This document shows, piece by piece, positions 1,817 to 26,770 of a stretch of 32,000 nucleotides of DNA. The first letter of the stretch is position 1, and the number at the start of each line of letters is the position of its first letter. Source of the stretch: Candidatus Brocadia sp. (GTDB lineage Bacteria > Planctomycetota > Brocadiia > Brocadiales > Brocadiaceae). The notes under the pieces were generated by a model that saw only the letters and a list, made by a program, of their open reading frames with translations, was not told the DNA's origin and did not search any database. The translations under genes and the position numbers were made by a program. The stretch spans positions 3,720,001-3,752,000 of the forward strand of contig CP091279.1 in assembly GCA_021650915.1 (NCBI GenBank). Reading direction: 5' to 3'.

Positions 1817-2016
1817 GAGATGCCTATTTTATGAAATCATTATTTTCTGCCCTTTTGTGCTATGTTGTCTTGCTGGCCATTTTGATAATTTTCGTTGCTG
1901 TTACAGGCATTATGGGAGCGCTCTTTCTTCTTACAATCGGTGTAGTATTCCTGGTTTATTTTTATGGCGGGTTTAAAAAAATTACCGTTTTGGGAGGCAA
2001 AGGTCGTACGTTTTGA
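1813..2016 (+). CDS. small two-helix membrane protein (67 aa), no recognised family
   Basis: ORF-track ORF 1741-2016 trimmed to ATG 1813, which forms an ATGA overlap with the deacetylase stop (alternative ATG at 1831). Two hydrophobic helices (SLFSALLCYVVLLAILIIFVAV, GALFLLTIGVVFLVYFYGGF) plus a basic tail. Its TGA overlaps the TTG start of the next gene. Confidence 0.45.
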   Translation: MRDAYFMKSLFSALLCYVVLLAILIIFVAVTGIMGALFLLTIGVVFLVYFYGGFKKITVLGGKGRTF

Positions 2017-4267: not shown

Positions 4268-4286
4268 GTATGAATAGAATGCGTAT

Positions 4287-8422: not shown

Positions 8423-9467
8423 CACGGCAGACATGGTTCACAAACTTGGTTTTGCAGAAGATGAAATTACCGAATGTCTTGAGAAAAGAGGGTTGCTTTC
8501 CATCGAATTGGAATTTACAAAAAAATGCAATCTCAGATGTCTTTATTGTTACTCCAGCGCTGGAGATCCCTTTGAGAATGAATTGAATCTTGATGAATTA
8601 AAGTCGGTTATATCCCAGGCAAAGGATCTGGGTGTTAAGAAAATAATACTTTTAGGAGGGGGTGAACCTCTGATATATAGCGGCGTAAGGAATATCATAG
8701 AGTATATAGATTCACTGGGATTACAGCAGGTGCTCTTTACGAATGGCACTCTCGTCACGAAGGAATGGGCACAGTTCCTTTTTCATAAAAAGGTTACGGT
8801 AATTACGAAGAGCAATAGCCTGAACTCCGAAGTTCAGGATATCCTTGCGGGTAGAAAAGGTGTCTTCAGCAATATAAGAAAGGGGTTGAAATTTTTACTG
8901 GATGCAGGGTACCCGAATGGAAAGGCGTCGTTAGGAATACAGACCATTATATGCAGGCAGAATATTGCCGAACTTCCGTCTATGTGGATATGGGCGAGAG
9001 AAAATCGCATTATTCCTTATTTTGAGATATTGACATATCAGGGTAGGGCAAAAGAAAATACAGACCTGAATGTATCTGTTTCTGAAGTCAAAGCGATATT
9101 TGAACGTTTAGAGATGATTGACAGGGAAAGGTTTGGTATTCTATGGGAATCGCGTCCAACCATCGCATCCTTCTCGTGCAAACGCCATTTTTACAGTTGC
9201 CTTATTAATTCACAGGGATACGTACAGCCATGCCCGGGCATAGATATGTCTGTTGGAAATATCAGAGAAAAACCTCTGAGAGATATTCTGGAATCCAGTC
9301 ATGTCATTACGAATCTCAGAAATATCTCCGAAAAGATTGAAGGCGCTTGTAAAACATGTGAGTATCGTTATGAATGTTATGGATGCCGGGGAAATGCGTA
9401 TCAAATTACCGGCAATTATCTGTCGTCTGACCCGACGTGTTGGCGCTTCAAGAAAAATCACGAATGA
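8415..9467 (+). CDS. radical SAM enzyme with C-terminal SPASM domain
   Basis: ORF 8328-9467 trimmed to ATG 8415 (8-nt overlap with the upstream stop). CNLRCLYC (Cx3Cx2C) and the GGGEP motif. C-terminal Cys pattern CLINSQGYVQPC ... CKTCEYRYECYGC ... C, i.e. Cx10C with Gx4C, then Cx2Cx5Cx2C, then a final Cys. This is the SPASM auxiliary Fe-S signature. Confidence 0.85.
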   Translation: MSNTADMVHKLGFAEDEITECLEKRGLLSIELEFTKKCNLRCLYCYSSAGDPFENELNLDELKSVISQAKDLGVKKIILLGGGEPLIYSGVRNIIEYIDSLGLQQVLFTNGTLVTKEWAQFLFHKKVTVITKSNSLNSEVQDILAGRKGVFSNIRKGLKFLLDAGYPNGKASLGIQTIICRQNIAELPSMWIWARENRIIPYFEILTYQGRAKENTDLNVSVSEVKAIFERLEMIDRERFGILWESRPTIASFSCKRHFYSCLINSQGYVQPCPGIDMSVGNIREKPLRDILESSHVITNLRNISEKIEGACKTCEYRYECYGCRGNAYQITGNYLSSDPTCWRFKKNHE

Positions 9468-10828
9468 AAATCCTGCTTATCTCTACTAATAACGAGAAGT
9501 ATCCATATCCTGTGGCTCCGATTGGCGCTGCATATATTGCAAAAGCGTTACGAAACAACGGGTATCATGTTAAGATTATCGATCTTTCTTTTGTGGAAGA
9601 CGATTGTGCGGTTATCAGGGATGTCCTGAAAGATTTTGTCCCCCATGTTATTGGCATATCGATAAGGAATATTGACAATCTCACCTACGGCAAAAGTATT
9701 TTCTATATGCCGAGAATTAGACATCTTGTAAACTTCATTAAAAGACACACATCTGTTCCATTAGTAGTTGGTGGCTCTGGTTTCTCTATCTTTCCCGAAG
9801 AGGTTTTGAGATATCTCGAATTGGAAACAGGCATTGTTGGAGAAGGAGAAACAGCATTTGCCCTGGTTGTTGGGGCCATTGAAAAGGGCAAGGACCTGGA
9901 CAATATCCAGAACCTCTGTTATTTAAAAGGTAATAAATTTTACTCCAACAGCATTGCATATACGCAGATTAACAATCGGCCTGACAGATCCCTTTTAAGC
10001 AATAGAATGTATTTTGAACTTGGTGGCATGGCCAATATTCAGTCAAAGAGAGGATGTCCATTTCAATGTACGTATTGTACATACCCATGCATTGAAGGCA
10101 ACAAAATGAGATTGAGAGAACCCATGGATGTCGTGGAAGAACTCAAGGAGATGCGGATTGATTACGGTATTGATTATGTCTTCTTCGTGGATGATATTTT
10201 TAATTTCCCGGAGGAGCATGCTGTTGCCATATGCGAAGAAATAGTCAGAACTAAGGTTAAGGTAAACTGGACTTGTTTTGCAACACCCAAAGGCATGACA
10301 CAGAAACTTGCCGCGCTTATGAAAACGGCCGGCTGTAAAGGGGTCGAATTCGGCTCAGATGCAGGTTCCGAAAAAACACTCAAAGGACTGAGTAAGCATT
10401 TTACCCATGATGACATTGCATATGCTGCTGAGTGTTGCGGGGAAATCGGCCTTCCTAATGCCCATTATATTATCATTGGCGGGCCTGGAGAAGACCATGG
10501 AACACTGCAAGAAACGTTTGCCTTTTTTGAAAAAATCAATCCAACCGCAGTTATTGCTTTGTTGGGATTGCGAATCTATCCAAATACACGGCTTCATAGT
10601 AAATCGATAGAAGACGGTGTAATTGAAAAAGACAGAAATTTGCTTGAACCTGCATTTTATTTATCACCGGAAATGGATACAACTGTAATATTCCGGAATA
10701 TTGCTGAACATGCAAGGAAACATCAAAACTGGATCGTACCCGGACTTGATATAAGATGTGATACGAATATGTTGGCAGTATTGAGGAAAATGGGCAGGAA
10801 AGGTCCATTGTGGGACATGCTCTCGTAA
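9464..10828 (+). CDS. B12-binding-domain radical SAM enzyme (class B-like)
   Basis: ORF 9437-10828 trimmed to ATG 9464 (ATGA overlap). N-terminal flavodoxin-like cobalamin-binding-type domain (MKILLISTNNEKYPYPVAPIGAAYIAKALRNNGYHVKIIDL...VVGGSGFSIFPEE). Radical SAM core SKRGCPFQCTYCTYP (Cx3Cx2C). Confidence 0.85.
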   Translation: MKILLISTNNEKYPYPVAPIGAAYIAKALRNNGYHVKIIDLSFVEDDCAVIRDVLKDFVPHVIGISIRNIDNLTYGKSIFYMPRIRHLVNFIKRHTSVPLVVGGSGFSIFPEEVLRYLELETGIVGEGETAFALVVGAIEKGKDLDNIQNLCYLKGNKFYSNSIAYTQINNRPDRSLLSNRMYFELGGMANIQSKRGCPFQCTYCTYPCIEGNKMRLREPMDVVEELKEMRIDYGIDYVFFVDDIFNFPEEHAVAICEEIVRTKVKVNWTCFATPKGMTQKLAALMKTAGCKGVEFGSDAGSEKTLKGLSKHFTHDDIAYAAECCGEIGLPNAHYIIIGGPGEDHGTLQETFAFFEKINPTAVIALLGLRIYPNTRLHSKSIEDGVIEKDRNLLEPAFYLSPEMDTTVIFRNIAEHARKHQNWIVPGLDIRCDTNMLAVLRKMGRKGPLWDMLS

Positions 10829-10841
10829 GGCAATAGGTCAT

Positions 10842-11585
10842 ATGAAAATGAGCACGCAAAGAGTTGTTCTTGTTACAGGCGGAAGCAAGGGAATAGGAAA
10901 GGCAATATCTGCAGCTTTTGCCGCAAATGGAGACACGGTAATTATAAATTATCATACATCATTTGATGAGGCAAATAAAGTGAAGTTGGAATTATTGCCA
11001 GGAAATACCTCCGTTTCTCTTGAACGGGCTGATGTATCGGATTATCTGCAAGTAAAACGGATGGTTGCCGATATCCTGGAAAAGTACGGGAAAATCGATG
11101 TGGTGGTAAATAATGCCGGTATTGTCAGAGACGGTTTTTTGATGCTTATGTCTGAAAGGGACTGGAATGATGTTATTGCTATAAACCTGAACGGCGTTTT
11201 CAACTGTTCAAAGGCCGTATCAGAATCGATGATCAGTCAAAGGAACGGTATAATAATCAATATCGCTTCCTTGAGCGGAATTACGGGACTGTCTGGTCAG
11301 GCAAATTATTCAGCTGCCAAAGGCGGCGTTATTGCCTTTACAAAGGCGCTTTCAAAGGAACTTGCGCCTTTTAATATACGGGTTAACGCCGTTGCTCCGG
11401 GAGTAATAGAAACGGAAATTGTCGATTCACTTAACGAGAGGGTAAAAAATAATTTTCTCAACGCTATCCCTATGAAAAGATTCGGGAAACCGGATGAGGT
11501 TGCATCTGTTGTTAAGTTCCTTGCATCACCGGATGCCGTCTATATCACGGGAGAAACTATTTGCGTTACGGGAGGACTCCATTGA
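10842..11585 (+). CDS. fabG: 3-oxoacyl-ACP reductase (SDR family)
   Basis: 247 aa. VTGGSKGIGKAI cofactor loop, NNAG, catalytic S...YSAAK, PGVIET. Alternative ATG at 10848. Confidence 0.9.
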   Translation: MKMSTQRVVLVTGGSKGIGKAISAAFAANGDTVIINYHTSFDEANKVKLELLPGNTSVSLERADVSDYLQVKRMVADILEKYGKIDVVVNNAGIVRDGFLMLMSERDWNDVIAINLNGVFNCSKAVSESMISQRNGIIINIASLSGITGLSGQANYSAAKGGVIAFTKALSKELAPFNIRVNAVAPGVIETEIVDSLNERVKNNFLNAIPMKRFGKPDEVASVVKFLASPDAVYITGETICVTGGLH

Positions 11586-11836
11586 TGTCTGACACAATTC
11601 TAAAACTGAAAGATCTGCTGATAACAAGATTAAAACTCAAGGTAAAAGCGGATGGTATACAGGAAGATACACCCTTGTTCGGACCAAACAGTCTTGGCCT
11701 CGATTCTATTGATGTGCTGGAACTGATTATCGGCATCAAAAAGACCTTTGGTGTTGAAATACCTGACAAGGAAACCGCAGAAAAGATATTTATCACGGTA
11801 GGTGCAATAGCACAATATATAGAAGAAAAAAGATGA
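11585..11836 (+). CDS. acyl carrier protein (cluster-dedicated)
   Basis: ORF 11561-11836 trimmed to ATG 11585 (TGATG, 1-nt overlap with the fabG stop). 83 aa. Phosphopantetheine-attachment motif LGLDSIDVLELI, followed by FGVEIPD. Confidence 0.85.
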   Translation: MSDTILKLKDLLITRLKLKVKADGIQEDTPLFGPNSLGLDSIDVLELIIGIKKTFGVEIPDKETAEKIFITVGAIAQYIEEKR

Positions 11837-12249
11837 CAGTTCCCTATCCGTCCCCAAGAACCGCACTACCCCATTCTTACCCGTTTCTCCTGATTGATAG
11901 AATACTTGACCTCGACGAAGGCAAACGCATTGTATGTCTGAAGAATGTGACTATTAATGAGGAATTTTTTCAAGGGCATTTCAAGGATAACCCTGTAATG
12001 CCTGGGTCCCTTATTATAGAAGCAATGGCACAAACGTCTGGATTGATGATTGTTAAAGAAAAATCAAGTATGGCTTATTTGGGCAAGATAAAAGATGCAA
12101 AATTCAGAAAAATGGTTGTGCCTGGTGACCAGCTTATTATTACCTCATCTCTCATTGATAAGTTTCCACCATTTTATACCTTTGAAGTTATTGCATCAGT
12201 TGGAAGCGAGATTGTGTCTGAAGCAGAGATAATCCTTTCCTTAAGTTGA
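11833..12249 (+). CDS. fabZ: 3-hydroxyacyl-ACP dehydratase (FabZ-like hot-dog fold)
   Basis: 138 aa. LPHSYPFLLIDRI and FFQGHFKDNPVMPGSLIIEAMAQ, the FabZ catalytic His/Glu block. ATGA overlap with the ACP gene. Confidence 0.85.
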   Translation: MTVPYPSPRTALPHSYPFLLIDRILDLDEGKRIVCLKNVTINEEFFQGHFKDNPVMPGSLIIEAMAQTSGLMIVKEKSSMAYLGKIKDAKFRKMVVPGDQLIITSSLIDKFPPFYTFEVIASVGSEIVSEAEIILSLS

Positions 12250-12262
12250 TAGGCAGGGCTCT

Positions 12263-13093
12263 ATGAAATACGTCAATTGCAATCTCTGTAATGCTGATGA
12301 TACTTTTCTTGTTACAACACAAAATGGTTATAAGATTGTACGATGTAAAAGTTGTGGTCTTGTTTATGTGAATCCCAGACCAGACAACGAGGCGCTAAAG
12401 CATCTCTATGATGAATATCACCAGAGAAACGGCAAAGACGTGAACGATTGGGCAAAGCTTATGGGAAAAAATTTTAAGGAGATTTTATTGTTTTTAAACA
12501 AAGCGCTTCCAGACAAAGGGAAGCTACTTGATATTGGATGTGGTTACGGACACTTTATCGAGATAATGAAACAGCAAGGATGGTCTGTATATGGAATCGA
12601 TCTCTCTCCTAAGGTATTGCTCTATGCAAAGGAAAAAGGACTGGATGTATTAGAAACATCCATAGATGACGTATCAGTTCCCGACGAATATTTTGATGTC
12701 GTAACGGCATTTTATGTGTTAGAGCATGTGACAAATCCGCTTCATGTCCTCAAAAACATGTATAAAATGCTAAAACCATGTGGAATTCTTGTCTTACGGG
12801 TTCCGCACACAACACCGATTATTCGAATTCTTTCGTTTTTCAGAATAAAGAATAATCTTTATGATACCCCCTATCATTTATTTGACTATTCACCAGAAAT
12901 AATAATTCAACTCCTTAAAAAGGCCGGGTTTTCCTCTGTCAAGGTAACACCGGGAAGCCCGACAATCCCTGCCAATGTATTTGAAATGATAGTTTCTGTG
13001 GTTTCGGGAAGTCTTTCTAAATTCCTTTTTGCAATAAGTGCTGGAAAATTTCTCTTACCCGGGATAAGCAAGACCATTTTTGCTTTCAAATAA
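12263..13093 (+). CDS. class I SAM-dependent methyltransferase with N-terminal CxxC...CxxC zinc-ribbon
   Basis: 276 aa. CNLCNADD...CKSCGLVYVNP ribbon. SAM motif LLDIGCGYGHF. FDVVTAFYVLEHV, LKPCGILVLRVP. Hydrophobic C-terminal tail. Confidence 0.8.
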   Translation: MKYVNCNLCNADDTFLVTTQNGYKIVRCKSCGLVYVNPRPDNEALKHLYDEYHQRNGKDVNDWAKLMGKNFKEILLFLNKALPDKGKLLDIGCGYGHFIEIMKQQGWSVYGIDLSPKVLLYAKEKGLDVLETSIDDVSVPDEYFDVVTAFYVLEHVTNPLHVLKNMYKMLKPCGILVLRVPHTTPIIRILSFFRIKNNLYDTPYHLFDYSPEIIIQLLKKAGFSSVKVTPGSPTIPANVFEMIVSVVSGSLSKFLFAISAGKFLLPGISKTIFAFK

Positions 13094-13120
13094 AAGAAAA
13101 AGAGACTTAGGTACTGTAAG

Positions 13121-15652
13121 ATGAAACGTATGAAATTAGAACATCTTCTGAGAAAAGTTGCATTTGTTATTTTCTTGTACCACAAGAAAATAGTCATCCT
13201 CTTTTCTGTTTTGATTATTGCCTCTTTCTACACTATTTTTCATATGAAAATTGAATCCGATGTTTTAGACGTGCTCCCTTCCGGCAATAAAACGGTTGCT
13301 CAATATAAGGATTTTATAGAAAAATATGGAACCATGGATAACATTGTATTTATCGTGGAATCGGAAGATAATAAAATTAGTGAAAACATAGACCTTATTG
13401 AAAAGATTGCCAAGAATCTTTCCGAATCTCCCCTAATTGAATATGTTGATTACGGCCCACTAAACTATAAGAACGAAGTATTTATAAGATATTTACCACT
13501 CTTTCTTGATGAAACCGGGATAAAATTTCTTAAGAAAAGATTAACACCACAAGGAATTAAACAGCAAGTCAAAATAAACCACGATAGGCTTGTTTCGCCT
13601 CTTAGCTCACCTTTTGATTATGAAATGATTGCAAGAGATCCACTCAATTTACATACTATTCTGAGAGCTAGTTTGTTAAAACAGTATCAGGCGAGCAAAT
13701 TAGATTTAAGCATGGGATATTATTTCACGAAAGATCATTCTGCCGCTCTCCTTCTTGCTAAACCCACAGGTAAGGGCAGAGACATGGCTTTCGTAAAGGA
13801 ATTAAAAAAAGAATTGGATATTATTACCTTCTCTGCATTGCAAGAGTGTAGCAATCCTCCTGGCGTAAAAGTTGGGATAACAGGAGGACATGCAATTGCG
13901 GAAGATATTCGTCAGATTATCAAACATGATGTTACTGTATCTTCTGCACTCTCTATTATTCTTATTGGATTGCTTATAATGCTGGCATATAGGGTGAGAA
14001 TAAAGATTCTTTCCATAATAGGATTAACTATGTTCGCATCTCTAGCAGTAACGTTAGCATTCGCTTATCTCCTTTTTGGAAGTTTAAATATTGTAACGAG
14101 CGCCGTTGTGGCAATACTTATTGATATTTATGTGGATTATTCTTTGCACATGGTAAAAAGGTATTGCGATGAATTTAAAAAACATAATAATCCATACATG
14201 GCGTTAGAAGTAACCCTCACGAGAACAGGGCCAGCTATAATCTTGTCCGCCCTGACAACTTCACTGTCTTTTTTCTGTATCCTTGTAACAAATTTTAAAG
14301 GGTTGTATGAGCTTGGAGTAGTATCCGGAATAGGTGTTATTTTGAGTATGATGTGCAATTTGTTTTTGATGAATGCACTTCTTGTGTGGATCAGTAAATC
14401 TGGTTTGCAACGAATACAATATGGAAGAAATTTCTTTCGTGGAAGCGGGAATTTTCCCAATTTTCTCATAGGGAAAACGAAATATATTCTTACATTGAGT
14501 GCCATTTTGGTTTGTTTGGCAGCATTCGGAATAGCTCGATTAAAATTTAACAATAATCCAGATTCGCTTGCGCCCGTGGATAGTCCTGCTATTCTCTCAG
14601 GAAAGAAGCTGGGTGAAAAAATGGGGAAAAAGGGAGAACCTCTGAATATTATAATTAAATCAGATAACAAAGAAGAACTCAGCCGCGCCTTTGATGAACT
14701 GGAAACTGTTTCTACTCGGTGGAAACACGCTAAGATAATTGAGGATTATAGTTCGTTAAATACATTTATGCCTAAGCCATCGGATCAATTAATAAATGTG
14801 AATACATTAAGAAAAATTGGACATGACAGCTTATTAAGAGTAGATTCTTTAGAAAGTGTACTTATATCTGCCCTTGAAAAAAATGGTTTTGTGTTTGAAA
14901 AAGATTATATTAATAAATATTTACACGAGACAGTAACTACACTTAATACTATTGAGCCTATAGGCTTTGACGAACTTGAAGCAATGTCAATTCCCAATGT
15001 ATCTCATTTTTATAATAAGCGGGATTTATCAATCGTTGCGTATCTTTATCCAACGGTAAAGGGATGGGATAAACGGACCGTGGATACAATACAGGATTAC
15101 ATTATATCAAAAGGGGGAAATTGGGTACTCGTAGGTAAGCCTATTCTTTTTACCGAAATACAGTCATCTATTATCTGGAATAGCGGAATTGCAACCGTAT
15201 TAACAGTTTTGCTGAATCTCATTATTATCTATTGGTATTTTAGAAGATTCCTGGTAGTCGTTTTGGTTATGCTGCCTGTGACACTTGGATTCGTGTTTAC
15301 TGTGGGAATAATGGGTTACGCAAACATCTCTTTTAATGTTTTTAATATTAGTGCGATTGCTCTCATTTTTGGATTAGGAGTTGATTATGGCATATACGTT
15401 ATACAGGCGTATCTGATGGAGGATACCGTGGATGTCGGAAATGCCCTTCGCATTAGCGGAAAAAACGTGATTATGTGTGCCGCGACAACCATAGCCGGTT
15501 GTGGAAGCCTGATAACCGCAAAATTCATTGGGATTGCTACGATAGGTCTTGTTCTTAGTATCGGCGCTATTACCTGCGCTTTCACGGCGCTTATTATTTT
15601 ACCTGCAATTATCATGCTTAAAGGGAAAAGGCTTTGCCATGCCAGACTATGA
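13121..15652 (+). CDS. MMPL/RND-superfamily lipid exporter
   Basis: 843 aa. Duplicated architecture: one TM helix, a large soluble loop and a bundle of about five TM helices, twice (the TM bundles lie around aa 270-420 and 690-835). GxxxD-type helices (FGLGVDYGIY) typical of MMPL/HpnN-like exporters. Confidence 0.8.
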   Translation: MKRMKLEHLLRKVAFVIFLYHKKIVILFSVLIIASFYTIFHMKIESDVLDVLPSGNKTVAQYKDFIEKYGTMDNIVFIVESEDNKISENIDLIEKIAKNLSESPLIEYVDYGPLNYKNEVFIRYLPLFLDETGIKFLKKRLTPQGIKQQVKINHDRLVSPLSSPFDYEMIARDPLNLHTILRASLLKQYQASKLDLSMGYYFTKDHSAALLLAKPTGKGRDMAFVKELKKELDIITFSALQECSNPPGVKVGITGGHAIAEDIRQIIKHDVTVSSALSIILIGLLIMLAYRVRIKILSIIGLTMFASLAVTLAFAYLLFGSLNIVTSAVVAILIDIYVDYSLHMVKRYCDEFKKHNNPYMALEVTLTRTGPAIILSALTTSLSFFCILVTNFKGLYELGVVSGIGVILSMMCNLFLMNALLVWISKSGLQRIQYGRNFFRGSGNFPNFLIGKTKYILTLSAILVCLAAFGIARLKFNNNPDSLAPVDSPAILSGKKLGEKMGKKGEPLNIIIKSDNKEELSRAFDELETVSTRWKHAKIIEDYSSLNTFMPKPSDQLINVNTLRKIGHDSLLRVDSLESVLISALEKNGFVFEKDYINKYLHETVTTLNTIEPIGFDELEAMSIPNVSHFYNKRDLSIVAYLYPTVKGWDKRTVDTIQDYIISKGGNWVLVGKPILFTEIQSSIIWNSGIATVLTVLLNLIIIYWYFRRFLVVVLVMLPVTLGFVFTVGIMGYANISFNVFNISAIALIFGLGVDYGIYVIQAYLMEDTVDVGNALRISGKNVIMCAATTIAGCGSLITAKFIGIATIGLVLSIGAITCAFTALIILPAIIMLKGKRLCHARL

Positions 15653-17096
15653 TGTAATAGTTATCGGGAGTGGGATTGGCGGTCTTATAAGCGCCGGGAT
15701 TCTGGTGTCAAGGGGTTTAAAAATACTTCTTGTAGAAAAGAATGTGAATCCCGGCGGGTATCTTTCGTCGTTTAAGAGAGGCGACTTTATTTTTGATTCC
15801 GCTGTCGATTGCTTTTCGGGTATTGAAAAGGGTGGATTGATAAGCAATGTCTTAAAGCTTCTCGATGTTGATAGCCAGGTGCATTTTGTGCGTGTTGATC
15901 CTATACGAGTAAGCATGTTCCCGAACCTTAAGGTTTCAGTTGATTCGGATATAAATACCTATATGGATAAACTTATGGCAATATTTCCTTCCGAAGCTGC
16001 TGCAATCAGGGGGTTCTTTAAAAGAGCTTCTATGGTATATGATGAACTCCAAATAGCGATAAACAAGCTTATTTCGGGTGAATTTGAATTAAATATAATA
16101 AGTCCGAACATACTGAAACTTATGTATAGTTCGTACGAGGAATTGCTGGTTGAATATATTACCGACTACCGGCTTAAAGCCGTATTGTCCGACCGGTGTA
16201 CGTTTGTTGGCCTTCCGCCTTCAAAAGCTTCTGCCTTTTCAATGATTGCCTTAATGATGAGTTACTTTAAATTTGGCGCATATAGACCTGTGGGGGGCTT
16301 TCAAAAACTCGCGAATGTCTTTGTTGATGGAATAAGGAAGAACGGAGGCAAGGCTATCTTCGGTACGGAGGCAAAGCAGATTATTTTAGACAAACAAAAT
16401 TATTGTACGGGTGTAAAATGTGATAACGGTGATGAATATACAACACGCTATATTATATCAAATGCCGACTTTAATCATACCTTCAGGAGCATCATGGGAG
16501 GAAAATATTCGTCTTTTGCCAGAGATATGACGGAGAACATTGGAAGTTCAACCTCTTTTTTTATAGTCTATGCGGGTATCATGGGCGATGCCGGCAAATA
16601 CTCCAGTATCGGCTATTATCCATCTTATGATATGGAGGGTTTCTTTTCTCCGGATAAGACGTTTAAGGAGGATACAACCATAGGCATTACTATCGCCAGT
16701 ATCGAGGATAAATCACGTGTTCCAGCGGATTGTAATACCATAGTGCTGCACGAAATGGCAGATGGATCTCGATGGGATTGTGTTGATAAATCAAAATGTA
16801 CCGGGGCAGTATTAAAAAAAGCAGAAAGTATCATTCCTGATATAATGGATAGAATTGTTGTCCTTGACTCAGCAACACCTCAGACACTGCAGAGATACAC
16901 GGGAAACTATCATGGCGCTGCATTTGGCTGGAGACAGGCGCCGGTGTTCAAGGGGATAAAGAGATGCGGAATAAATAATCTGTATATTGCCGGCCACTGG
17001 GGGAACATGGGTGGCGGCGTTTTAGCTGCTGCATACGCTGGAGTTGAAGCGGCAAGCGAAATTCTTACGAAAGAGGGAATACACATTGCCATCTGA
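15639..17096 (+). CDS. FAD-dependent oxidoreductase of the phytoene desaturase (CrtI/CrtD) family
   Basis: ORF 15549-17096 trimmed to ATG 15639 (14-nt overlap with the exporter stop). Dinucleotide fold YDVIVIGSGIGGLISAGILVSRGLKILLVEKN..PGG. C-terminal LYIAGHWGNMGGGVLAAAYAGVEAA block typical of the CrtI/amine-oxidase fold. Confidence 0.8.
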   Translation: MPDYDVIVIGSGIGGLISAGILVSRGLKILLVEKNVNPGGYLSSFKRGDFIFDSAVDCFSGIEKGGLISNVLKLLDVDSQVHFVRVDPIRVSMFPNLKVSVDSDINTYMDKLMAIFPSEAAAIRGFFKRASMVYDELQIAINKLISGEFELNIISPNILKLMYSSYEELLVEYITDYRLKAVLSDRCTFVGLPPSKASAFSMIALMMSYFKFGAYRPVGGFQKLANVFVDGIRKNGGKAIFGTEAKQIILDKQNYCTGVKCDNGDEYTTRYIISNADFNHTFRSIMGGKYSSFARDMTENIGSSTSFFIVYAGIMGDAGKYSSIGYYPSYDMEGFFSPDKTFKEDTTIGITIASIEDKSRVPADCNTIVLHEMADGSRWDCVDKSKCTGAVLKKAESIIPDIMDRIVVLDSATPQTLQRYTGNYHGAAFGWRQAPVFKGIKRCGINNLYIAGHWGNMGGGVLAAAYAGVEAASEILTKEGIHIAI

Positions 17097-18126
17097 TGTT
17101 TGTGTTGTTATCCCTGCCTATAACGCATCCAGTACCATTGGGAATATCGTAATCGGCGCATTAAAACATGTTTCTAAGGTCATCGTCGCCGATGACGGTT
17201 CTACGGATAATACAGCAGTTGCGGCTTCCGGGGCAGGAGCAGAGATAGTTATAATAGACAGAAATAGAGGAAAAGGAAATGCCCTAACAGTTCTTTTTCA
17301 GAAGACCGTAGATGAAGGATACGATGCCGTAATAAGCATGGATGCGGATGAGCAACATGATCCTGAAGAGATACCGAAGTTTCTTGCTGCTCATATCATG
17401 CACCCGGATGATATAATTTCAGGCTCAAGAATGGGTGAGAAAGAAAAAATTCCAAGGGCGCGATACAACTCTATGTGTATAGCGCGATATTATATTTCCC
17501 TTGCCGCCAATCAATTTATAGAAGATACACAATGTGGTTTCAGGCTTTACCCTCTATCGATAATAAAAAAAATCCGGTTGAAGACAGAAAGATTCGTTAC
17601 TGAAACCGAATTGCTGATGAAAGCGGGAGATATGGGCGCAGACATCAGGTTTGTAAGTATTAAAACGATATACAATGAAAACGGGACCCATTTCAAGCCT
17701 GTTAAGGACATTGTTGCTATAACAGCATATGTCATTTCCTATATTTACGTCAAATGGTTAATCGAAGGGATAACCTCAAACAATTCAAATACCTATTTAA
17801 CACAAAACCATCTAAGGGATTTAATAGGCAAAAACAAAACCGTGGATATTTTTTTTCAAATATTTACGGTTTTCACCGCCCTGCCTGCAACGGTGTTTTT
17901 TTTACTCGAATATCAATTTTTAGGGCTATTTATACCAAACAATTTTGCATCTATACGGGAACGTGGCTGTGGATTTTCCAAGATTACCCTTTCAACACAA
18001 ACGTTGCCTGTTTTGTTTATCGTTGCCGGTATTGAAAAAATCATGAATGTTACCGGGTCTAAGGTCAATATCTTGGATGGTTTTATAAAAAGGTTCTTCT
18101 CAAATTCATGGAAAGATACGGAATAG
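17086..18126 (+). CDS. family 2 glycosyltransferase with C-terminal membrane domain
   Basis: VCVVIPAYNASSTIGNIV, VADDGSTDNT and the DADEQHD (DxD) motif. C-terminal hydrophobic helices (IVAITAYVISYIYVKWL, IFFQIFTVFTALPATVFFLLEY). The start is ambiguous: TTG 17086 (11-nt overlap, preferred) or TTG 17044 (ORF-track start, 53-nt overlap). Confidence 0.8.
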   Translation: MPSDVCVVIPAYNASSTIGNIVIGALKHVSKVIVADDGSTDNTAVAASGAGAEIVIIDRNRGKGNALTVLFQKTVDEGYDAVISMDADEQHDPEEIPKFLAAHIMHPDDIISGSRMGEKEKIPRARYNSMCIARYYISLAANQFIEDTQCGFRLYPLSIIKKIRLKTERFVTETELLMKAGDMGADIRFVSIKTIYNENGTHFKPVKDIVAITAYVISYIYVKWLIEGITSNNSNTYLTQNHLRDLIGKNKTVDIFFQIFTVFTALPATVFFLLEYQFLGLFIPNNFASIRERGCGFSKITLSTQTLPVLFIVAGIEKIMNVTGSKVNILDGFIKRFFSNSWKDTE

Positions 18127-18149
18127 TATAAAGATAGTAATCCACATAC

Positions 18150-18788
18150 ATGGCTATTTCGATAAAAGAAGGCTTTAAATTACTAGTATATAGATACATT
18201 CCCTATTGTTTTTTATATCCCTTTTTTGTGGTATTTGGCAGGTTAGAAGTCAAGGGGATTGAACACATTCCGATAAAAGGCGGTATTATTATAGCGTCGA
18301 ACCATTTAAGTTATATTGATCCGCCTCTCTTAGCAACGATACTTCCTCGAAGATGCAATTTTATGGCAAAACATGAATTATTTGATATACCGATATTGAA
18401 ATATATCATACGGTATTATGCCTTTCCTATAAATCGGCAAAAACCAAGGGTGTCCGCAATAAAAACTGCGATACACAAGCTTTGCAACGGAGAAATAGTC
18501 GTCATATTTCCGGAAGGGAGCAGAAATATAGGAACAACTTTCCTTCCTCCTAAAAACGGTATTGGCATGGTAGCTCTTTTGAGTAAGATGAATGTTGTGC
18601 CGACATTGATTGAAGGCACAGACAATCTCTTTCCCCCGGGCAAATTCATCCCAAGACCGGCAAAGATACGAATAACGTTTTGCAAACCACTTGACCCTGT
18701 CCTGGAAGATACGGATTATAGAGTAATCAGTCGCAAAATCATGAGCCATATAACACAAATGACTGCGACAAAAACTTTAGGTGCTTAG
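18150..18788 (+). CDS. plsC: 1-acyl-sn-glycerol-3-phosphate acyltransferase-like (LPLAT/PlsC family)
   Basis: 212 aa. HX4D motif ASNHLSYIDPP and FPEGSR motif. Last gene before the terminator. Confidence 0.85.
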   Translation: MAISIKEGFKLLVYRYIPYCFLYPFFVVFGRLEVKGIEHIPIKGGIIIASNHLSYIDPPLLATILPRRCNFMAKHELFDIPILKYIIRYYAFPINRQKPRVSAIKTAIHKLCNGEIVVIFPEGSRNIGTTFLPPKNGIGMVALLSKMNVVPTLIEGTDNLFPPGKFIPRPAKIRITFCKPLDPVLEDTDYRVISRKIMSHITQMTATKTLGA

Positions 18789-18947: not shown

Positions 18948-18989
18948 ATAAAAAAGGCATGTTTCTGTAACGAAACATGCCTTTTTTTT
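18948..18989. terminator. bidirectional rho-independent terminator shared by the convergent + operon and the - strand lipoprotein gene
   Basis: Perfect 10-bp stem ggcatgtttc (18956-18965) / gaaacatgcc (18972-18981) with a 6-nt loop. An A-run lies upstream (18949-18955) and a T8 run downstream (18982-18989), so the hairpin reads as a terminator on both strands. Confidence 0.75.
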
Positions 18990-19033: not shown

Positions 19034-20263
19034 TTATTGGTGTTGATGGTCTTTGGGAACCTCTTTCTCGCAATCAAAGCAGAAGTACGTCTTGCCACAT
19101 TCGTGTCCCGTCCCACTCTCTGCTTTGCAGGTAGGACAAAACGAGGTGATACCACAAATATGATCGTCTCCCACTTCTTTCTCGCAATCGTAACAGAAGT
19201 AAGTAACATCACAGATGTGGCCTGGGCCAACTTCTTCTTCACAGGTTGAACAAAAAGTAGTTACTCCGCAGACGTGTCCATCCCCCACCTCTTTTTTGCA
19301 ATCCTTACAAAAGAAGGTTAGGTCGCAGATATGACCGCTGCCAACCTCCTCTTTGCAGTGCTGGCAATACGTGGTAAGACCACAAATGTGTCCTTCCCCG
19401 ACTTCTTTATTACAAGTGGCGCATTTATGTGGCGCCTCAGCCATAGATTCCTTTTTTCCCTCTGGCAGTGCCTCCACCTTTTCGTCTTGAGGTTTTGCAG
19501 CGGGTATTTCAGGCACAGCAGCCTGTGGCGCTCCTGGTGCTGGCGCAACTTCTGGTATAACGGGCGCTTTTGGCACTTCAGGAACTGCTGGTACCTCTGG
19601 CATTGAAGGAGCTTCCGGTGCTTCAGGAAGTTCTGGTACTGCCGGGGCCTCTGGCACTTCGGGAACCTCAGGAACCTCAGGAACCTCAGGAACCTCAGGA
19701 ACCTCAGGAACCTCAGGAACCTCAGGAACTGCTGGTACCTCTGGCATTGAAGGAGCTTCCGGCGCTTCTGGAAGTTCTGGTACAGCCGGGGCCTCTGGCA
19801 TTGAAGGAACCTCTGGCACTTCAGGAACCTCTGGAACCTCTGGCTTTGCAGGAGCTTCTGGCGCTTCAGGAAGTTCTGGAACTGCCTGGGCCTCTGGCAT
19901 CGAAGGAGCCTCTGGCACAGCTGGTACCTCTGGCATTGAAGGAGCTTCCGGCGCTTCTGGTACTGCTGGAACCTCTGGCATCGAAGGTGCTTCTGGCGTT
20001 TTAGGCGCTTCAGGTACCGCCGGGGCCTCTGGCACTGTTGGCGCTGATACCTGTGGAATCTCAGGTCGAGTTACTTGAGCCTCAGGAGTAACCGTTGGCA
20101 CTGGGGTAGGTATTGGTATTCCTTCAGGACGTTTTACCTCCTTCAAAGGTTCTCCTTTTATCTCAGGCGCCTTTGTTTCCTTGACTTGTGTCTGGGTGGC
20201 AACACAGGAACTCAAAAAGATTGTAAGACTTACTAAACCTACTCCCCAAAACCCCTTTTTCAT
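19034..20263 (-). CDS. lipoprotein with Pro/Glu/Val/Ala-rich spacer and seven tandem CxxC-x9-HxC modules
   Basis: 409 aa. AAGGAGG lies 6 nt upstream of the ATG. Signal peptide with lipobox LSSC (Cys20). Residues ~46-258 are [12 protein letters not shown] repeats. Residues 279-409 are a 19-aa period, C-x2-C-K/E-E-E-V-G-x-G-H-x-C-x-x-T-x-F/Y, repeated six times plus a C-terminal partial copy (20 Cys and 10 His in 131 aa). Confidence 0.85.
19490..20128 (-). repeat. in-frame low-complexity coding repeat ([12 protein letters not shown] units) with higher-order ~75-bp near-identical copies
   Basis: Near-identical blocks begin at 19581 and 19725 (ggaactgctggtacctctggcattgaaggagcttccgg...ggaagttctggtac.gccggggcctctggca). 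Related copies continue up to ~20000. Confidence 0.85.
19662..19729 (-). repeat. perfect 9-bp tandem array (ggaacctca x7 plus a partial copy), encoding (PEV)n
   Basis: Counted directly: units at 19662, 19671, 19680, 19689, 19698, 19707 and 19716, then the partial ggaac. A degenerate unit precedes the array at 19653. Confidence 0.95.
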
Positions 20264-20305
20264 AAACTCCCTCCTTAAACCTTATTTTGCAAATAGTTAT
20301 TACGA

Positions 20306-21778
20306 TTAATTTTTAATGCTGTTGCTCGCTATTAATTCCAACTCATCGGGTATTTCCCGTTTTTCCAGGTCTATTCCAGCTGCAGAAAAAAACTTCTTTC
20401 TTACCGCATCAAAGGTGATTCTCGAAAGTGACTTCTTATCGTTTACGTCTCCAAAAATCCCCAAGTCAACACAGCCTGCCGCCATATTGGCATGTCCGCC
20501 CGCGTTCATAAATCCAAAGGCCTTTTGCAGTAAAAATGCGAGATTGATTCTTGAATCTACGCTTCGCGCTGATAGCTGCACTTTATCCTTGTCGATACCA
20601 AAAACGAGAACGGTGGATACACCCTCCATCTGCAACATCAATTCAGCCGCTTGCGGCAGGGCGTCCCTGTCGGTTATAAATTCCACAAAAGATATCAGGT
20701 ACGAACCCCGTATTTCACGATTTCGTATGGTTCTTCCGATGATATCCATGGTTTCTGCGCTCATGGGAGGATTTTCGATTTGATTTAAGAGCGCCGTGTC
20801 CAGCAATGGGGAGAGGTAAGCCGCAGCTTCGAGATCTTCAGTGGTTGTGTTTCTGGTAAACCCGCCTGTGTCTACCCGGATTCCGTAACGAAGCGCCGTA
20901 GCCAGGGGTGGATCAGGAACAATATCCAGATGTCTCAGATATCGCGTCATGATGGTAGAAGTTGCGCCAATCTTAGGTAATATTTCAATAAACTCGCCTT
21001 TTACAAGACTGAGATCTGTTTGATGATGATCAATGACAATATGAGGAATAGTATGGAGGGGCAAGATATTATTTTTTGAAGGGATAGAAGCCTCTATTAA
21101 TGCCACCTTGCCTGCCGATGAAACTATTTTAAGCACTTCCTCAGTGGTTTTTAACCGGGTAAGATCGGTTTCTAACAAATTGACCAGCGTCTTGTTTTGC
21201 TGACGACCGATGTTCCCACCGTAATAGATATTGGATTTAATATTATATTTTTCCGCAATGCGCTTAAGCGCGAATCCGGAGGCAATGGCATCTGGATCAG
21301 GATTGTCCTGCAAAAAAATCGCTACTCCCTTGTTTGCTGCTGCCTGGATAACACTTACCAAACTGAAAACAGATCTTTTCAGTTTAGCCGTTTCTAGTTC
21401 ATTCAGGATTGCATCGATAATAATCCTGGCGGTTTGAACGGTGCGATCGACGCCGTTCTCTGATAACTCGGCGCCCTCCATTTCATCAGTTGCCTGCGAT
21501 AATATAAATTTATCAGGAAATAATTTCCTTATGCGGTTTGCTAAGGTTAAATTATCTCTGTGAGTCTTCTGCAGAAGGATGAAGGCTATCGTATTTTTTA
21601 TTGGCAAAGAATCAAAGTCCAGGGTATGGATGTCAGCGGTCATTACGCGCAGATTGGGCTCTTTTAAACCAAGAAAAACCGCTTCGTTATTGCCGATTAC
21701 CAGTGTTTCTTCACCAGATCGGCTTAAAATTCTGGCTAAAGCGCAACTAATTTCATCACATCCTAAAATAAGATACAT
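20306..21778 (-). CDS. DHH/DHHA1-family phosphoesterase with N-terminal degenerate TrkA-N (Rossmann-like) domain
   Basis: 490 aa. DHH motifs NPDPDAIAS and VIDHHQT. DHHA1 motif AGGHANMAAG. The N-terminal ~130 aa resemble TrkA-N/RCK (MYLILGCDEISCALARIL...LVIGNN...VMTADI), but the GxGxxG loop is replaced by GCDEIS. Confidence 0.8.
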   Translation of the reverse strand: MYLILGCDEISCALARILSRSGEETLVIGNNEAVFLGLKEPNLRVMTADIHTLDFDSLPIKNTIAFILLQKTHRDNLTLANRIRKLFPDKFILSQATDEMEGAELSENGVDRTVQTARIIIDAILNELETAKLKRSVFSLVSVIQAAANKGVAIFLQDNPDPDAIASGFALKRIAEKYNIKSNIYYGGNIGRQQNKTLVNLLETDLTRLKTTEEVLKIVSSAGKVALIEASIPSKNNILPLHTIPHIVIDHHQTDLSLVKGEFIEILPKIGATSTIMTRYLRHLDIVPDPPLATALRYGIRVDTGGFTRNTTTEDLEAAAYLSPLLDTALLNQIENPPMSAETMDIIGRTIRNREIRGSYLISFVEFITDRDALPQAAELMLQMEGVSTVLVFGIDKDKVQLSARSVDSRINLAFLLQKAFGFMNAGGHANMAAGCVDLGIFGDVNDKKSLSRITFDAVRKKFFSAAGIDLEKREIPDELELIASNSIKN

Positions 21779-22039
21779 CGTTACATCCTTTTCTTAGTGA
21801 AATTTCTTTCTAAAGAAAATCAAGAGGCGACGTATTATACGATTATGTCTCTTAGAAGTCAATATTAAAACTGCTTCCTTCCTAATTTTAACCTTTTACA
21901 AATATGGGAGTTATATTATGGAATAGTATCGTAAGCTGTGACATAAGCGTCTTTTTTCCGATCGAGTTTTAACTTGAAATCTTGTGATTGGTTCAGGTAA
22001 CATTACCGTAAATATTCCGGATCATCCAGAATCACGATT

Positions 22040-23182
22040 GTGAGCAAGTGTCTGCATATGCAAATGTATGATATTGTTAATCAGGTTGGCATTACCGAAT
22101 CCCTATGGCGGGAATCCATTGAAAGGCATGACGCTGTCAGTGAAGAATTTGACGGTATTCGTTTTTTCAGGATAACAAAAAAGATTGGCGTCTTGGGTAA
22201 GGGATCCATTATTACTGAGGAAGGAATTATTTTTGGTTTTCCCAGCATAGCCCGGGTATTACATTTGGAAAACGGCGTTCGTAATGCCTATAGGCACCCT
22301 TTTTATGTGGAAGAAAAAGTTGATGGGTATAATGTCAGGGTTGTGCGTATCCAGGGCCGTGTGTTGGTTTTTTCCCGTGGTGCATATGTTTGTCCGTTTT
22401 CTACAGACCGGATTGCAGATTTTTTGGAAGCAAAGAAAATATTTGATGATATGCCGGGCCTGATCGTTTGTGGTGAGTTTGCCGGTCCCGATAATCCTTA
22501 TAACATTGAACATCCTCCTTATGTGAAGGAAGACGTCGGGTTTTTCGCCTTTGACTTAATGTCGATCAATCAACCTCATGCAATCCCTGTTAATGAACGA
22601 TATAAGATCTTTGACACCTATCGTATGCCTACGGTAAGGAGATTTGGACAGTTTTCAGCATCGGATATTTCAGGCCTGAAAACGATCATGAAAGAGCTGG
22701 ACTCGATGGGATGTGAAGGTGTTGTGCTAAAGCCAACCCATCCTGCAGAAAAGATTTTAAAGTACGTGACGCTCGGCTCTTGTTTGCGTGATATTAACGT
22801 TACCGCTCCTTTGATGCCAGAGATGGCTTCTGAATTTTTTACCCATCGGATTATTCGTGCAGCGATGTTTATTTATGAACAGACGCGGTTTTTACAACCA
22901 GAAGTTTTCTCGCAATTGGGAAAGGCCTTGCTTAGGCCGTTATGTGACAATGTCGCAAAAGCGGCGCGGAACGAAGTTATTGACGAACAATTTCTTCTCA
23001 GGTTTCGGGAAGAGAAAAATATCCAACGGATGATAGATCACCTCCACAAATGTAAGGTAAAGTTCGAGGTGCTATCGAAAAATAAAATAGGAAACTACTG
23101 GCATGTCAAGTTCGCAAAAAAGTGTTATGCCACCTATGAAATCCTTCAAGGACATTTGCAAGGTGCAACTCATGTGGACTAA
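22040..23182 (+). CDS. ATP-dependent RNA ligase, Pab1020/MthRnl (Rnl3) family
   Basis: 380 aa. Nucleotidyltransferase motif I FYVEEKVDGYNVRV, preceded by GFPSIARVLHLENGVRNAY. Motifs CGEFAG and EGVVLKP. This matches my memory of the archaeal homodimeric RNA ligases. Start uncertain: GTG 22040, or ATG 22058/22064. Confidence 0.8.
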   Translation: MSKCLHMQMYDIVNQVGITESLWRESIERHDAVSEEFDGIRFFRITKKIGVLGKGSIITEEGIIFGFPSIARVLHLENGVRNAYRHPFYVEEKVDGYNVRVVRIQGRVLVFSRGAYVCPFSTDRIADFLEAKKIFDDMPGLIVCGEFAGPDNPYNIEHPPYVKEDVGFFAFDLMSINQPHAIPVNERYKIFDTYRMPTVRRFGQFSASDISGLKTIMKELDSMGCEGVVLKPTHPAEKILKYVTLGSCLRDINVTAPLMPEMASEFFTHRIIRAAMFIYEQTRFLQPEVFSQLGKALLRPLCDNVAKAARNEVIDEQFLLRFREEKNIQRMIDHLHKCKVKFEVLSKNKIGNYWHVKFAKKCYATYEILQGHLQGATHVD

Positions 23183-25534: not shown

Positions 25535-25792
25535 GAAAGCCATTCCCAATGAGGCAATTATCTTTGATAAGAGGGAGTTTGTTTGTTAAAGAAATTTACA
25601 AATATTCTTAAAATTAAGGTAAATTTTCTGCTTGATAAAACCTGTTTTATGCTATTAATTTTTTAGTAATATTTACCGAATATATTACTGAATTAAACAG
25701 GTCAGAAGACTTGGATATAATAAACAAGTTGTTATTTATCGTTTTTATGTCTTCTATTATGAAATGAGTATTGTTTTTGTTGGTACGATTTG

Positions 25793-26770
25793 ATGATTAG
25801 AGAAAAAGCCCCTATATTTACTATTCCACTAAAGCGTATTGAAGGTTTTTTAGCCGATATAATCTGCTTTAGAGATGCCAAGGCGAGAACGAATCATCCT
25901 GCCTTAGCGTTTGTAATTGGTGTTCATAACGAAAGCCGCTTAGAGGTATGGGATAAATTTTTAATCAAGCACGAATATAAGATATCTAAACAGCATGGTG
26001 AAAATTTTGTGGATGTAACCAATGATAGCAATCTCATTCACAGACAAGGAAACATTGTCCCCGGCGCAATGACTGTTTCCAAGATCATCCTTCCCTTGGA
26101 AATTATCTTCTCGGAATTGGAAATTTCTTCGGTAAATATAAAATTTACTGGTTCTGCTTACTATAACGAAAGAACATGCAATTTGTTTTTATGGCAGTTT
26201 GTAAGTAATGATTATATCCAAATTGAAGTAAAAACGTATCAATGCGACAGGACAATCGCTACAACTATTATCTTGGGCAGGTTAAAAGCCGCCGGTAAGC
26301 AGGTCAAAGAAATCGATGAATCGACAGTAAACAAAAAATGTCTGTCAAGGGTACAAACTTACTTCGAGACCTTGGGAATTAAAAGTAATTTTTATCTACA
26401 GAAAGAAGAATACAAGGATTACACCTATCCTCTTGCCTATATAGCTTCATTACCATCAGCAGAAATTGTAAATCAGCTGTCTGGGCAGGGAGGTATGATT
26501 AATATACTGCGTATGGATTTTGGCAGTTATGAACGAATTCCCATTACCGGGGACAGAGGTCCTGAGGTGAAGCTTGCGAGGGCAAAGAAGAGAAATACCT
26601 TTAATAAGATCATGGCTGAAATCGCTGAAGGACTTGTTACATATTATCGCGGTCTTGCTATCGTAAATCCTATCGCAAAATTTCACAATTCCAAAGAACC
26701 TGTTATAGGCGCTATTAATAAGTTGATAAGTACCGATCATCAGGAAAAAGAATTCATAGCACCTACCTGA
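25793..26770 (+). CDS. hypothetical protein with divergent MaoC-like hot-dog (hydratase) signature
   Basis: 325 aa from ATG 25793 (TTG 25790 is adjacent). The segment NFVDVTNDSNLIHRQGNIVPGAMT resembles the MaoC/R-hydratase motif F-x-x-[LV]-[ST]-G-D-x-N-P-[LIV]-H...GM. Asp and His are retained; Gly is replaced by Asn and Pro by Leu. The rest is unrecognised. Confidence 0.55.
   Translation: MIREKAPIFTIPLKRIEGFLADIICFRDAKARTNHPALAFVIGVHNESRLEVWDKFLIKHEYKISKQHGENFVDVTNDSNLIHRQGNIVPGAMTVSKIILPLEIIFSELEISSVNIKFTGSAYYNERTCNLFLWQFVSNDYIQIEVKTYQCDRTIATTIILGRLKAAGKQVKEIDESTVNKKCLSRVQTYFETLGIKSNFYLQKEEYKDYTYPLAYIASLPSAEIVNQLSGQGGMINILRMDFGSYERIPITGDRGPEVKLARAKKRNTFNKIMAEIAEGLVTYYRGLAIVNPIAKFHNSKEPVIGAINKLISTDHQEKEFIAPT

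Follow-up and report, generated by a model that had tools for sequence, protein, structure and literature searches.

A lipoprotein gene at positions 19034..20263 on the minus strand of a 32,000-nucleotide stretch of Candidatus Brocadia sp. DNA (assembly GCA_021650915.1, contig CP091279.1, positions 3,720,001 to 3,752,000; this whole stretch is referred to as the window) encodes a tandem array of seven small cysteine- and histidine-containing modules at the end of a long proline-rich linker. With moderate confidence, we interpret the protein as an acidic, length-variable stalk displaying a rigid rod of seven structural mononuclear metal knuckles, most likely occupied by Zn(II), which would serve as a binding platform. 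Judged by its conservation, the protein combines a tether that varies with a head that is precisely conserved.

The open reading frame (ORF) consists of 409 codons plus the stop codon (19034-19036), whereas the plus-strand translation over the same interval is stop-ridden. Its translation is identical to the modules quoted in a first-pass annotation, which had been made from the sequence alone and is hereby corrected to the minus strand. The array occupies residues 281-409 (19037..19423, minus strand), has a net charge of -12 over 129 residues and follows an exact period of 19, with modules starting at residues 281, 300, 319, 338, 357, 376, and 395. Modules 1 to 6 (19367..19423, 19310..19366, 19253..19309, 19196..19252, 19139..19195, and 19082..19138, all minus strand) each provide a Cys3His set, while the terminal module 7 (19037..19081, minus strand), with a length of only 15 residues, reads CxxC-x7-HxH and provides Cys2His2, so that the array holds 20 Cys, an even number. 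The modules and the period of the first-pass annotation were thus retained, but its spacing of CxxC-x9-HxC had to be revised to C-x2-C-x7-H-x-C-x5 (C-x2-C-x7-H-x-[C/H] over the entire array), and its assignment of three Cys and one His applies to six modules, not to the seventh. Its distinction from heme-binding CxxCH motifs proved right, as N, K, K, E, E, K, and E occupy the position after the second Cys in the successive modules, and the His is located 8 residues downstream of that Cys instead of in the position of a c-type site.

An ortholog scan of one genome per GTDB species, with the single window protein as query, returned 39 loci, all of them belonging to anammox Planctomycetota of the family Brocadiaceae and sharing an array identity of 71-92% with the window. 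The values amount to 84-92% within Brocadia, including Candidatus Brocadia sapporoensis and B. pituitae, to 84% in Wunengus, 80% in Jettenia, 78% in Loosdrechtia, and 71-72% in Kuenenia. Seven modules are present in every genus sampled except Kuenenia, which carries eight. Within the 34 seven-module orthologs, all 28 ligand columns are invariant and the non-ligand columns of the array show a mean identity of 89%; based on this module-by-module conservation including every ligand column, the pattern is far beyond chance. The ratio of nonsynonymous to synonymous substitution rates (dN/dS) of the array amounts to 0.02-0.05, with synonymous sites being saturated. In respect to the non-ligand positions, orthologous modules share 60-100% identity compared with 47% between the paralogous modules within the window protein. 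This in turn indicates that the seven modules are old and that each has retained a surface of its own. Brocadiaceae genomes also hold paralogous copies of the array, 74-85% identical, within other proteins (L033 GWA2_39_15, L037; P0002, P0003, P0004).

The outcome of the wider homology searches depended on the query. A word-indexed search with the single C-terminal sequence recovered one partial relative, and a 42-column two-module profile gave no match at E<=1e-3 among 5.8 billion sequences. Database homologs were obtained with a 37-sequence array profile, and the exhaustive HMMER search of 1.84 billion representative sequences resulted in 73 clusters at E<=1e-3, including 43 at E<=1e-10. About 64 of them are genuine, after nine (P0029, P0047, P0049, P0056, P0065, P0067, P0069, P0070, and P0073) had been rejected as unrelated low-complexity or out-of-frame translations; the database “protein” P0049, for example, was translated from a homologous locus in the wrong frame. 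Exact-sequence records were found neither for the window protein nor for the homolog P0001, and the source annotations of the database homologs all read “hypothetical protein” with the exception of one SurA-named fusion. No Pfam domain had been precomputed for these homologs. Most family members are short, with 120-300 residues, in which a signal peptide and lipobox are directly followed by 3-8 modules. Their module consensus is C-[PA]-x-C-x-x-[ED]-[VA]-G-x-[GN]-H-x-[C/H]-G-x-[TS]-x-[FYW], with a predominant spacing of 7 residues from CxxC to Hx[C/H] (236 cases; next 8 residues, 56 cases) and of 5 residues from Hx[C/H] to the following CxxC (261 cases; next 6 residues, 22 cases). Apart from the ligands, strong conservation is seen at the acidic position 7 (E/D in 189 out of 237 modules), Gly9, Thr/Ser17, and the aromatic position 19. 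The acidic residue could form a second-shell hydrogen bond with His12, and the aromatic one could provide a packing contact between modules.

In order to leave the fourth ligand position unconstrained, modules matching CxxC-x7-H-x-? were counted in the approximately 64 distant clusters. Among 254 modules, this position is occupied by Cys in 169, by His in 68, and by other residues in 17 cases, while position 12 is His in 237 out of 252. The exchange follows the location of the module: inner modules favor Cys (C160/H34) and terminal modules favor His (H34/C9, i.e., HxH in 34 out of 43), a rule to which module 7 of the window conforms. Within a His-rich subfamily, whole proteins use HxH, and one conserved module reads C-x2-H...H-x-H, thereby swapping Cys for His at the second ligand position as well. 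Interchange of Cys and His at fixed positions is a classic signature of metal coordination and incompatible with obligate disulfide partners. Moreover, the Cys count is odd in 35 out of 60 mature lipoproteins of the family, and the eight-module Kuenenia arrays would hold 23. Taken together, the Cys/His exchange and the odd Cys counts argue for metal ligands instead of disulfides. The register of the arrays, opening with CxxC and closing with Hx[H/C], usually 0-5 residues from the C-terminus, yields complete four-ligand units only if the sites form within modules, which is the arrangement we adopt. A metal-free repeat knotted by disulfides, either as a structural Cys-rich stalk or as a thiol-disulfide relay, is therefore regarded as improbable. 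It would agree with the even Cys count of the window array and with the fact that extracytoplasmic Cys-rich repeats are usually disulfide-bonded, but each module contains three Cys, 29% of the Cys/His modules have His at the fourth position, and the near-invariant His12 finds no explanation in disulfide chemistry. Consequently, the disulfide exchange or knotting considered in the first-pass annotation is not supported, whereas its proposal of metal-ligand modules gained support from the Cys/His exchange, the invariant ligand columns of the orthologs, and a confident prediction of the fold.

This prediction was obtained with AlphaFold2 for residues 278-409 from a 34-row alignment and reached a mean predicted local distance difference test score (pLDDT) of 92.8 and a predicted template modeling score (pTM) of 0.74 over the array. 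Each module is modeled with two three-residue strands, mapping to x-[FY]-C and x-E-V and bracketing the CxxC at the hairpin turn, with G-x-G-H-x-C as the following predicted loop. For a distant His-rich member of 229 residues, the same pattern was predicted with a pLDDT of 90-95 over the regular modules. The pTM of 0.74 over seven repeats suggests a fixed packing between the modules, thus, a rod and not beads on a string. With the CxxC located at the predicted turn, together with the ligand pattern, its invariance, and the C/H exchange, the modules may fall into the functional class of structural zinc-knuckle or zinc-ribbon-like units, in which four Cys/His ligands surround one Zn tetrahedrally.

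No described family accounts for them. Among the models of Pfam-A and NCBIfam, none reaches its cut-off, be it with the window protein or with any of 37 family members. The best match below threshold is PF07191 (Zn_ribbon_6), scoring 24.6-24.7 bits on the array alone, against a cut-off of 25, and 18.5 bits on the whole protein; it matches 10 out of 37 family members at E<=0.1. Besides falling short of the gathering threshold of this double zinc ribbon, which is made of two CxxC...CxxC Cys4 ribbons, the array has HxC/HxH and not CxxC as second half-site. The other Pfam matches below threshold are all zinc ribbons or fingers. By sequence, neither the protein nor the module profile matched a PDB entry below E = 0.4. 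In the Foldseek comparison with the PDB no fold match was significant, the lowest E values being 0.06 (array) and 0.48 (distant member); weak similarity was seen to ZCCHC4, the Cep104 zinc-finger array, TMEM55B, the zinc-ribbon “fingers” of USP and PLpro, and aRF1. Searches of the full-text literature turned up no account of either the module or the anammox protein carrying it. The initial classification as an unrecognized domain thus still stands with regard to curated families and solved structures.

The N-terminus of the protein (residues 1-20; 20204..20263, minus strand) has the composition expected of a lipoprotein signal peptide cleaved by signal peptidase II (SPase II): a positively charged n-region with KK, a hydrophobic h-region, and the lipobox L-S-S-C within the pattern [LVI][ASTVI][GAS]C. 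Direct reading of this lipobox predicts Cys20 as the lipidated N-terminus, and orthologs retain it as [FS]L[STVA]SC. The LSSC lipobox and signal peptide had already been recognized in the first pass, as had the overall layout, in which an extracytoplasmic protein is anchored by a lipid and carries a long spacer of low complexity; this layout is likewise supported. A twin-arginine translocation (Tat) motif is absent from the window protein and from all family members checked. Proteins containing Fe-S clusters or related cofactors are exported in folded form via Tat; the combination of a Sec/SPase II signal with the lack of a Tat motif therefore implies a cofactor that can be loaded outside the cytoplasm, i.e., a simple ion. 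An electron relay in which 3Cys-1His [2Fe-2S] or rubredoxin-like mononuclear iron sites are lined up as a wire is for this reason highly improbable, even though the ligand set is known from mitoNEET-type clusters, had been put forward as an option before, and anammox envelopes are rich in redox proteins. In addition, the order C, C, H, C with spacings of 2, 7, and 1 (C-x2-C-x7-H-x-C) does not resemble the CDGSH motif, C-x-C-x2-(S/T)-x3-P-x-C-D-G-(S/A/T)-H, for which there was no Pfam match either, and homologous sites include Cys2His2 and even CysHis3 variants.

Between the lipidated Cys and the array, residues 21-280 (19424..20203, minus strand) form an acidic, Pro-rich linker of low complexity with a net charge of -36. 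Its composition of P72, E49, A39, and V36 in 257 residues confirms the spacer as such; however, it is not made of Pro, Glu, Val, and Ala only, as initially stated, since these four contribute 196 out of 257 residues (76%) and the remainder includes K, T, S, Q, M, I, and L. Tandem Repeats Finder detected a repetitive DNA core (19571..19972, minus strand) with periods of 9/18/27/144 nt, including 7.6 perfect copies of a 9-mer. Among 32 orthologs, the lipidated Cys and the first module are separated by 107 to 267 residues (median 181; window 260), a variation likely arising by slippage of the repetitive DNA. The composition shifts between genera as well, from PEVP-type in Brocadia to Glu-rich in Kuenenia and AEEAAQPAAPEAAAP repeats in another lineage. 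Two kinds of hits in this region were discarded. An NCBIfam match to the streptococcal IgA-binding protein BAC (E = 1e-22; 80 bits compared with a cut-off of 1700) reflects Pro-rich composition only. Sizeable antisense and other-frame ORFs extend across the linker (19570-20004 on the plus strand; 19318-19606 on both strands), and all of them are considered by-products of the repetitive, GC-rich linker DNA; the antisense ones, e.g., 19570-20004, were rejected as artefacts of the repeat.

In mechanistic terms, we propose that the Candidatus Brocadia-like lipoprotein would be exported via Sec and processed by SPase II, with the lipidated Cys20 anchoring it in an envelope membrane. The acidic Pro/Glu/Val/Ala-rich linker of approximately 260 residues would serve as a flexible or extended spacer, its length drifting by DNA slippage. 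Each module is expected to fold as a short beta-hairpin whose turn holds the CxxC pair in the manner of a zinc knuckle, with the G-x-G-H-x-C loop coming next, so that Cys1, Cys4, His12, and Cys14 (His14 in the last module) may hold one metal ion, most likely Zn(II), in tetrahedral geometry. The bound ion would replace a hydrophobic core and the seven metal-stapled modules would pack head to tail into a rigid rod. In this arrangement the metal plays a presumably structural role, and the working surface would consist of the conserved side chains specific to each module, displayed to a partner in the envelope.

The distinction between structural sites and metal storage relies on the module-specific identity at non-ligand positions together with a module number that is fixed while the linker varies between 107 and 267 residues. 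One four-ligand site per 19 residues, the rigid predicted fold, a non-ligand dN/dS of 0.02-0.05, and the conserved surfaces of the individual modules likewise favor structural sites over storage, so that the capture or storage role suggested in the first-pass annotation is possible but fits less well. In its elaborated form, the protein would be an envelope metal buffer, sponge, or chaperone that reversibly captures Zn, Cu(I), Cd, Ni, Co, or Fe(II) in a periplasm-like compartment, either protecting the cell or handing metal over to importers and enzymes, while the stalk sweeps a large volume. We consider this unlikely, although seven to eight thiolate-rich sites per chain, the acidity of stalk and array, the terminal HxH, the His-rich variants in relatives, and the very high metal demand of anammox cells would suit such a role, and the evidence for metal ligands is the same for both explanations. 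No metal transporter, regulator, or efflux gene adjoins the gene in the window or its distant homologs, and the predicted sites resemble classical high-affinity structural knuckles within a confidently modeled rigid fold. Furthermore, metallothionein-like buffers vary outside their ligands, in contrast to the strong module-specific constraint on non-ligand residues and the fixed module number observed here.

The domain contexts of the array in relatives were examined as well. Brocadiaceae encode fusions with the architectures DnaJ - transmembrane (TM) segment - HEAT_2 - Big_5 - array, and Ig-like domain - array - SurA_N_3. In a distant subgroup (P0044, P0051, P0055, and P0048; locus L041), an array of 3-4 modules forms the C-terminus of large BatA_N-type “aerotolerance” membrane proteins, with the BatA match being weak at 22-31 bits compared with a cut-off of 25.9. 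Given its fusion in Big_5, HEAT, DnaJ, SurA_N, and BatA_N contexts, the array can be described as a portable module of extracytoplasmic proteins that is associated with domains of the chaperone type. The stand-alone homolog P0053 overlaps the end of an unannotated gene of 614 residues, which itself follows a DUF58 gene. These contexts give some room to a redox switch based on zinc-thiolate sites outside the cytoplasm, or to a sacrificial array of thiols, in which O2, H2O2, nitric oxide (NO), hydroxylamine, or reactive nitrogen intermediates of the anammox pathway would oxidize the Cys3His sites, eject Zn, and rewire the array or unfold the rod into a sticky holdase or an envelope-stress signal. 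The host is an oxygen-sensitive anammox bacterium, zinc-thiolate sites are chemically established as oxidant-labile, and the fusions to chaperone-type SurA_N_3, DnaJ, and BatA proteins, together with the DUF58 gene near one homolog, point in the same direction. All of this is circumstantial, however; the window protein has no sensor or transducer domain, the BatA assignment is as weak as described, and a thiol switch would be blunted by the redox-inert His that many relatives carry at the fourth position, throughout in the His-rich subfamily. Overall, we judge a redox switch to be quite unlikely.

On the genomic level, the lipoprotein gene is probably the distal member of a short transcription unit. 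Upstream on the same strand lies a gene for a TrkA_N + DHH + DHHA1 phosphoesterase (20306..21778, minus strand; Pfam assignment), whose product of 490 residues lacks a signal peptide and is assigned to the cytoplasm. The gap of 42 nt between its stop codon and the lipoprotein start agrees with the first reading of this locus, and in 32 loci the lipoprotein start codon is found 23-64 nt (median 38) past the stop of the same-strand TrkA_N + DHH + DHHA1 gene, consistent with likely co-transcription of both. A strong Shine-Dalgarno sequence, AAGGAGG (20270..20276, minus strand), precedes the ATG by 6 nt. A consensus scan further revealed, upstream of the DHH gene, a candidate sigma-70-type promoter, TTGACT-17-TATAAT (21834..21862, minus strand), matching the consensus in 11 of 12 positions. 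At the other end, a bidirectional intrinsic terminator (18950..18987, unstranded) with a perfect 16-bp stem, a 6-nt loop, an A-run, and a T-run is situated between the lipoprotein gene and the convergent acyltransferase gene, in line with the previously noted shared terminator.

The DHH gene is neighbored by genes for an RNA ligase of archaeal type (TIGR01209 / Pab1020 family; 22040-23182, plus strand) and a PIN-domain “RNA ligase partner” (TIGR03875; 23331-24089, minus strand), and the block of RNA ligase, partner, DHH, and lipoprotein genes is syntenic across most Brocadiaceae loci. On the opposite side, a long same-strand cluster (2013-18788, plus strand) contains four FabF-like ketosynthase ORFs, two methyltransferases, an AMP-binding enzyme, a radical SAM-SPASM and a B12-binding radical SAM enzyme, a FabG-like short-chain dehydrogenase/reductase (SDR), FabA/Z, an MMPL transporter, a phytoene-desaturase-like amine oxidase, a family 2 glycosyltransferase (GT2), and an acyltransferase. 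We take this cluster to resemble the candidate ladderane-lipid biosynthesis cluster of anammox bacteria; a cluster of this type does not adjoin the lipoprotein gene in other Brocadiaceae loci. Some of its ORFs overlap by 30-100 nt when read from their first TTG/GTG starts (15549-17096 with 17044-18126, and 8328-9467 with 9437-10828), the true starts probably lying further downstream. Three further ORFs of 138-326 residues (25790-26770 and 204-995, plus strand; 30831-31247, minus strand) gave no Pfam match at E<=1e-3 to 1e-5.

Several points weigh against a structural knuckle rod in the envelope. Cys-based zinc sites are uncommon outside the cytoplasm, where they are attacked by periplasmic oxidants and Dsb proteins, and the case for such sites in the present protein leans on the host being a strict anaerobe. 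The conserved non-ligand residues would be expected equally for a specific metallochaperone. Tetrahedral geometry of the sites is inferred and not seen directly. Genomic context provides little guidance toward a binding partner: the DHH phosphoesterase may belong functionally with the RNA ligase genes rather than with the lipoprotein, and the neighborhoods of the distant lipoprotein homologs have nothing in common.

Cys-based zinc fingers are generally seen as belonging to the cytoplasm and, for the most part, to eukaryotes or archaea. In the present case, an array of predicted zinc knuckles, dedicated and strongly conserved, is exported and lipid-anchored in anammox bacteria, which account for a large share of the N2 produced globally. 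Provided that the metal sites can be confirmed, the array would represent a new extracytoplasmic metal-stapled repeat domain comprising approximately 64 sequence clusters with neither a Pfam/NCBIfam model nor a structure, a marker gene conserved throughout the sampled genera of the Brocadiaceae, and a new component of the poorly understood anammox cell envelope. The fixed number of modules, as opposed to the freely varying stalk, offers a natural experiment on tether length, and the small module of 19 residues, confidently predicted to fold, may be of interest for protein design. Should the redox-switch explanation hold true instead, the protein would be an envelope counterpart of Hsp33/RsrA, with its module recruited to SurA-like, DnaJ-anchored, and BatA-type proteins.

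Among the closest known systems are zinc ribbons and rubredoxin-type knuckles (Zn_ribbon_6, DZR, Zn_ribbon_19), which share the CPxC-type knuckle at a hairpin turn (a predicted turn in the case of the window modules) and four ligands within approximately 15 residues, and are the only families near threshold by sequence; the weak fold matches to the USP and PLpro “fingers” are of the same type. The array differs from these by its second half-site, H-x-C/H-x-H in a loop instead of a second CxxC knuckle, and by its format, a unit of 19 residues repeated 7-8 times head to tail on an extracytoplasmic lipoprotein. Eukaryotic CCHC knuckles and zinc-finger arrays such as Cep104 and ZCCHC4, the top non-significant Foldseek matches, have in common the Cys-Cys-His-Cys order, one Zn per mini-module (predicted metal in the case of the window modules), and the occurrence in arrays. 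The retroviral-type CCHC motif, C-x2-C-x4-H-x4-C, is spaced by x4 and x4 where the window module has x7 and x1, and CCHC proteins act in the cytoplasm or nucleus by binding nucleic acids or proteins, in contrast to the acidic and exported array.

Similarities toward the cysteine-rich domain of DnaJ (CxxCxGxG) and the zinc center of Hsp33 comprise CxxC-Gly repeats within structural or redox-sensitive zinc centers (predicted ones in the window array) and chaperone contexts, in agreement with relatives of the array carrying DnaJ and SurA_N domains as fusion partners. In DnaJ, however, two Cys4 sites are formed from repeats lying far apart, whereas the window repeats appear to be self-contained, include His, and are located outside the cytoplasm; Pfam gave no match to the DnaJ zinc-finger domain in the window protein or the 37 family members. 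Hsp33 and RsrA would be the cytoplasmic counterparts only of an envelope zinc-thiolate switch as outlined above. Metallothioneins likewise contain many Cys per chain, and binding of several metal ions is a possible further similarity, but they form polynuclear thiolate clusters with CxC/CC, have almost no regular secondary structure and few aromatic or His residues, and vary freely outside their Cys. In the window array, four-ligand units recur at even intervals, the His is invariant, position 19 holds a conserved aromatic residue, and a hairpin is confidently predicted.

The overall layout is reminiscent of envelope tethers, namely the TonB rod, the linkers of LpoA/LpoB and RcsF, and the Pro-rich wall-spanning regions of Gram-positive bacteria, in which a membrane anchor and a long Pro-rich or disordered spacer precede a small functional domain at the C-terminus. 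This likeness, including that to LpoB, is one of composition and architecture and not of homology, and the earlier description of the spacer as TonB-like was kept in this restricted sense: the Pro-rich spacer is shared, but Pfam detected no TonB_C domain or other known head, the anchor is a lipobox and not a TM helix, and the linker is acidic and, with 107-267 residues, much longer. Considering its sequence features as a whole, the module would best be classified as a zinc-knuckle-type unit belonging to no described family and used in an undescribed exported tandem format.

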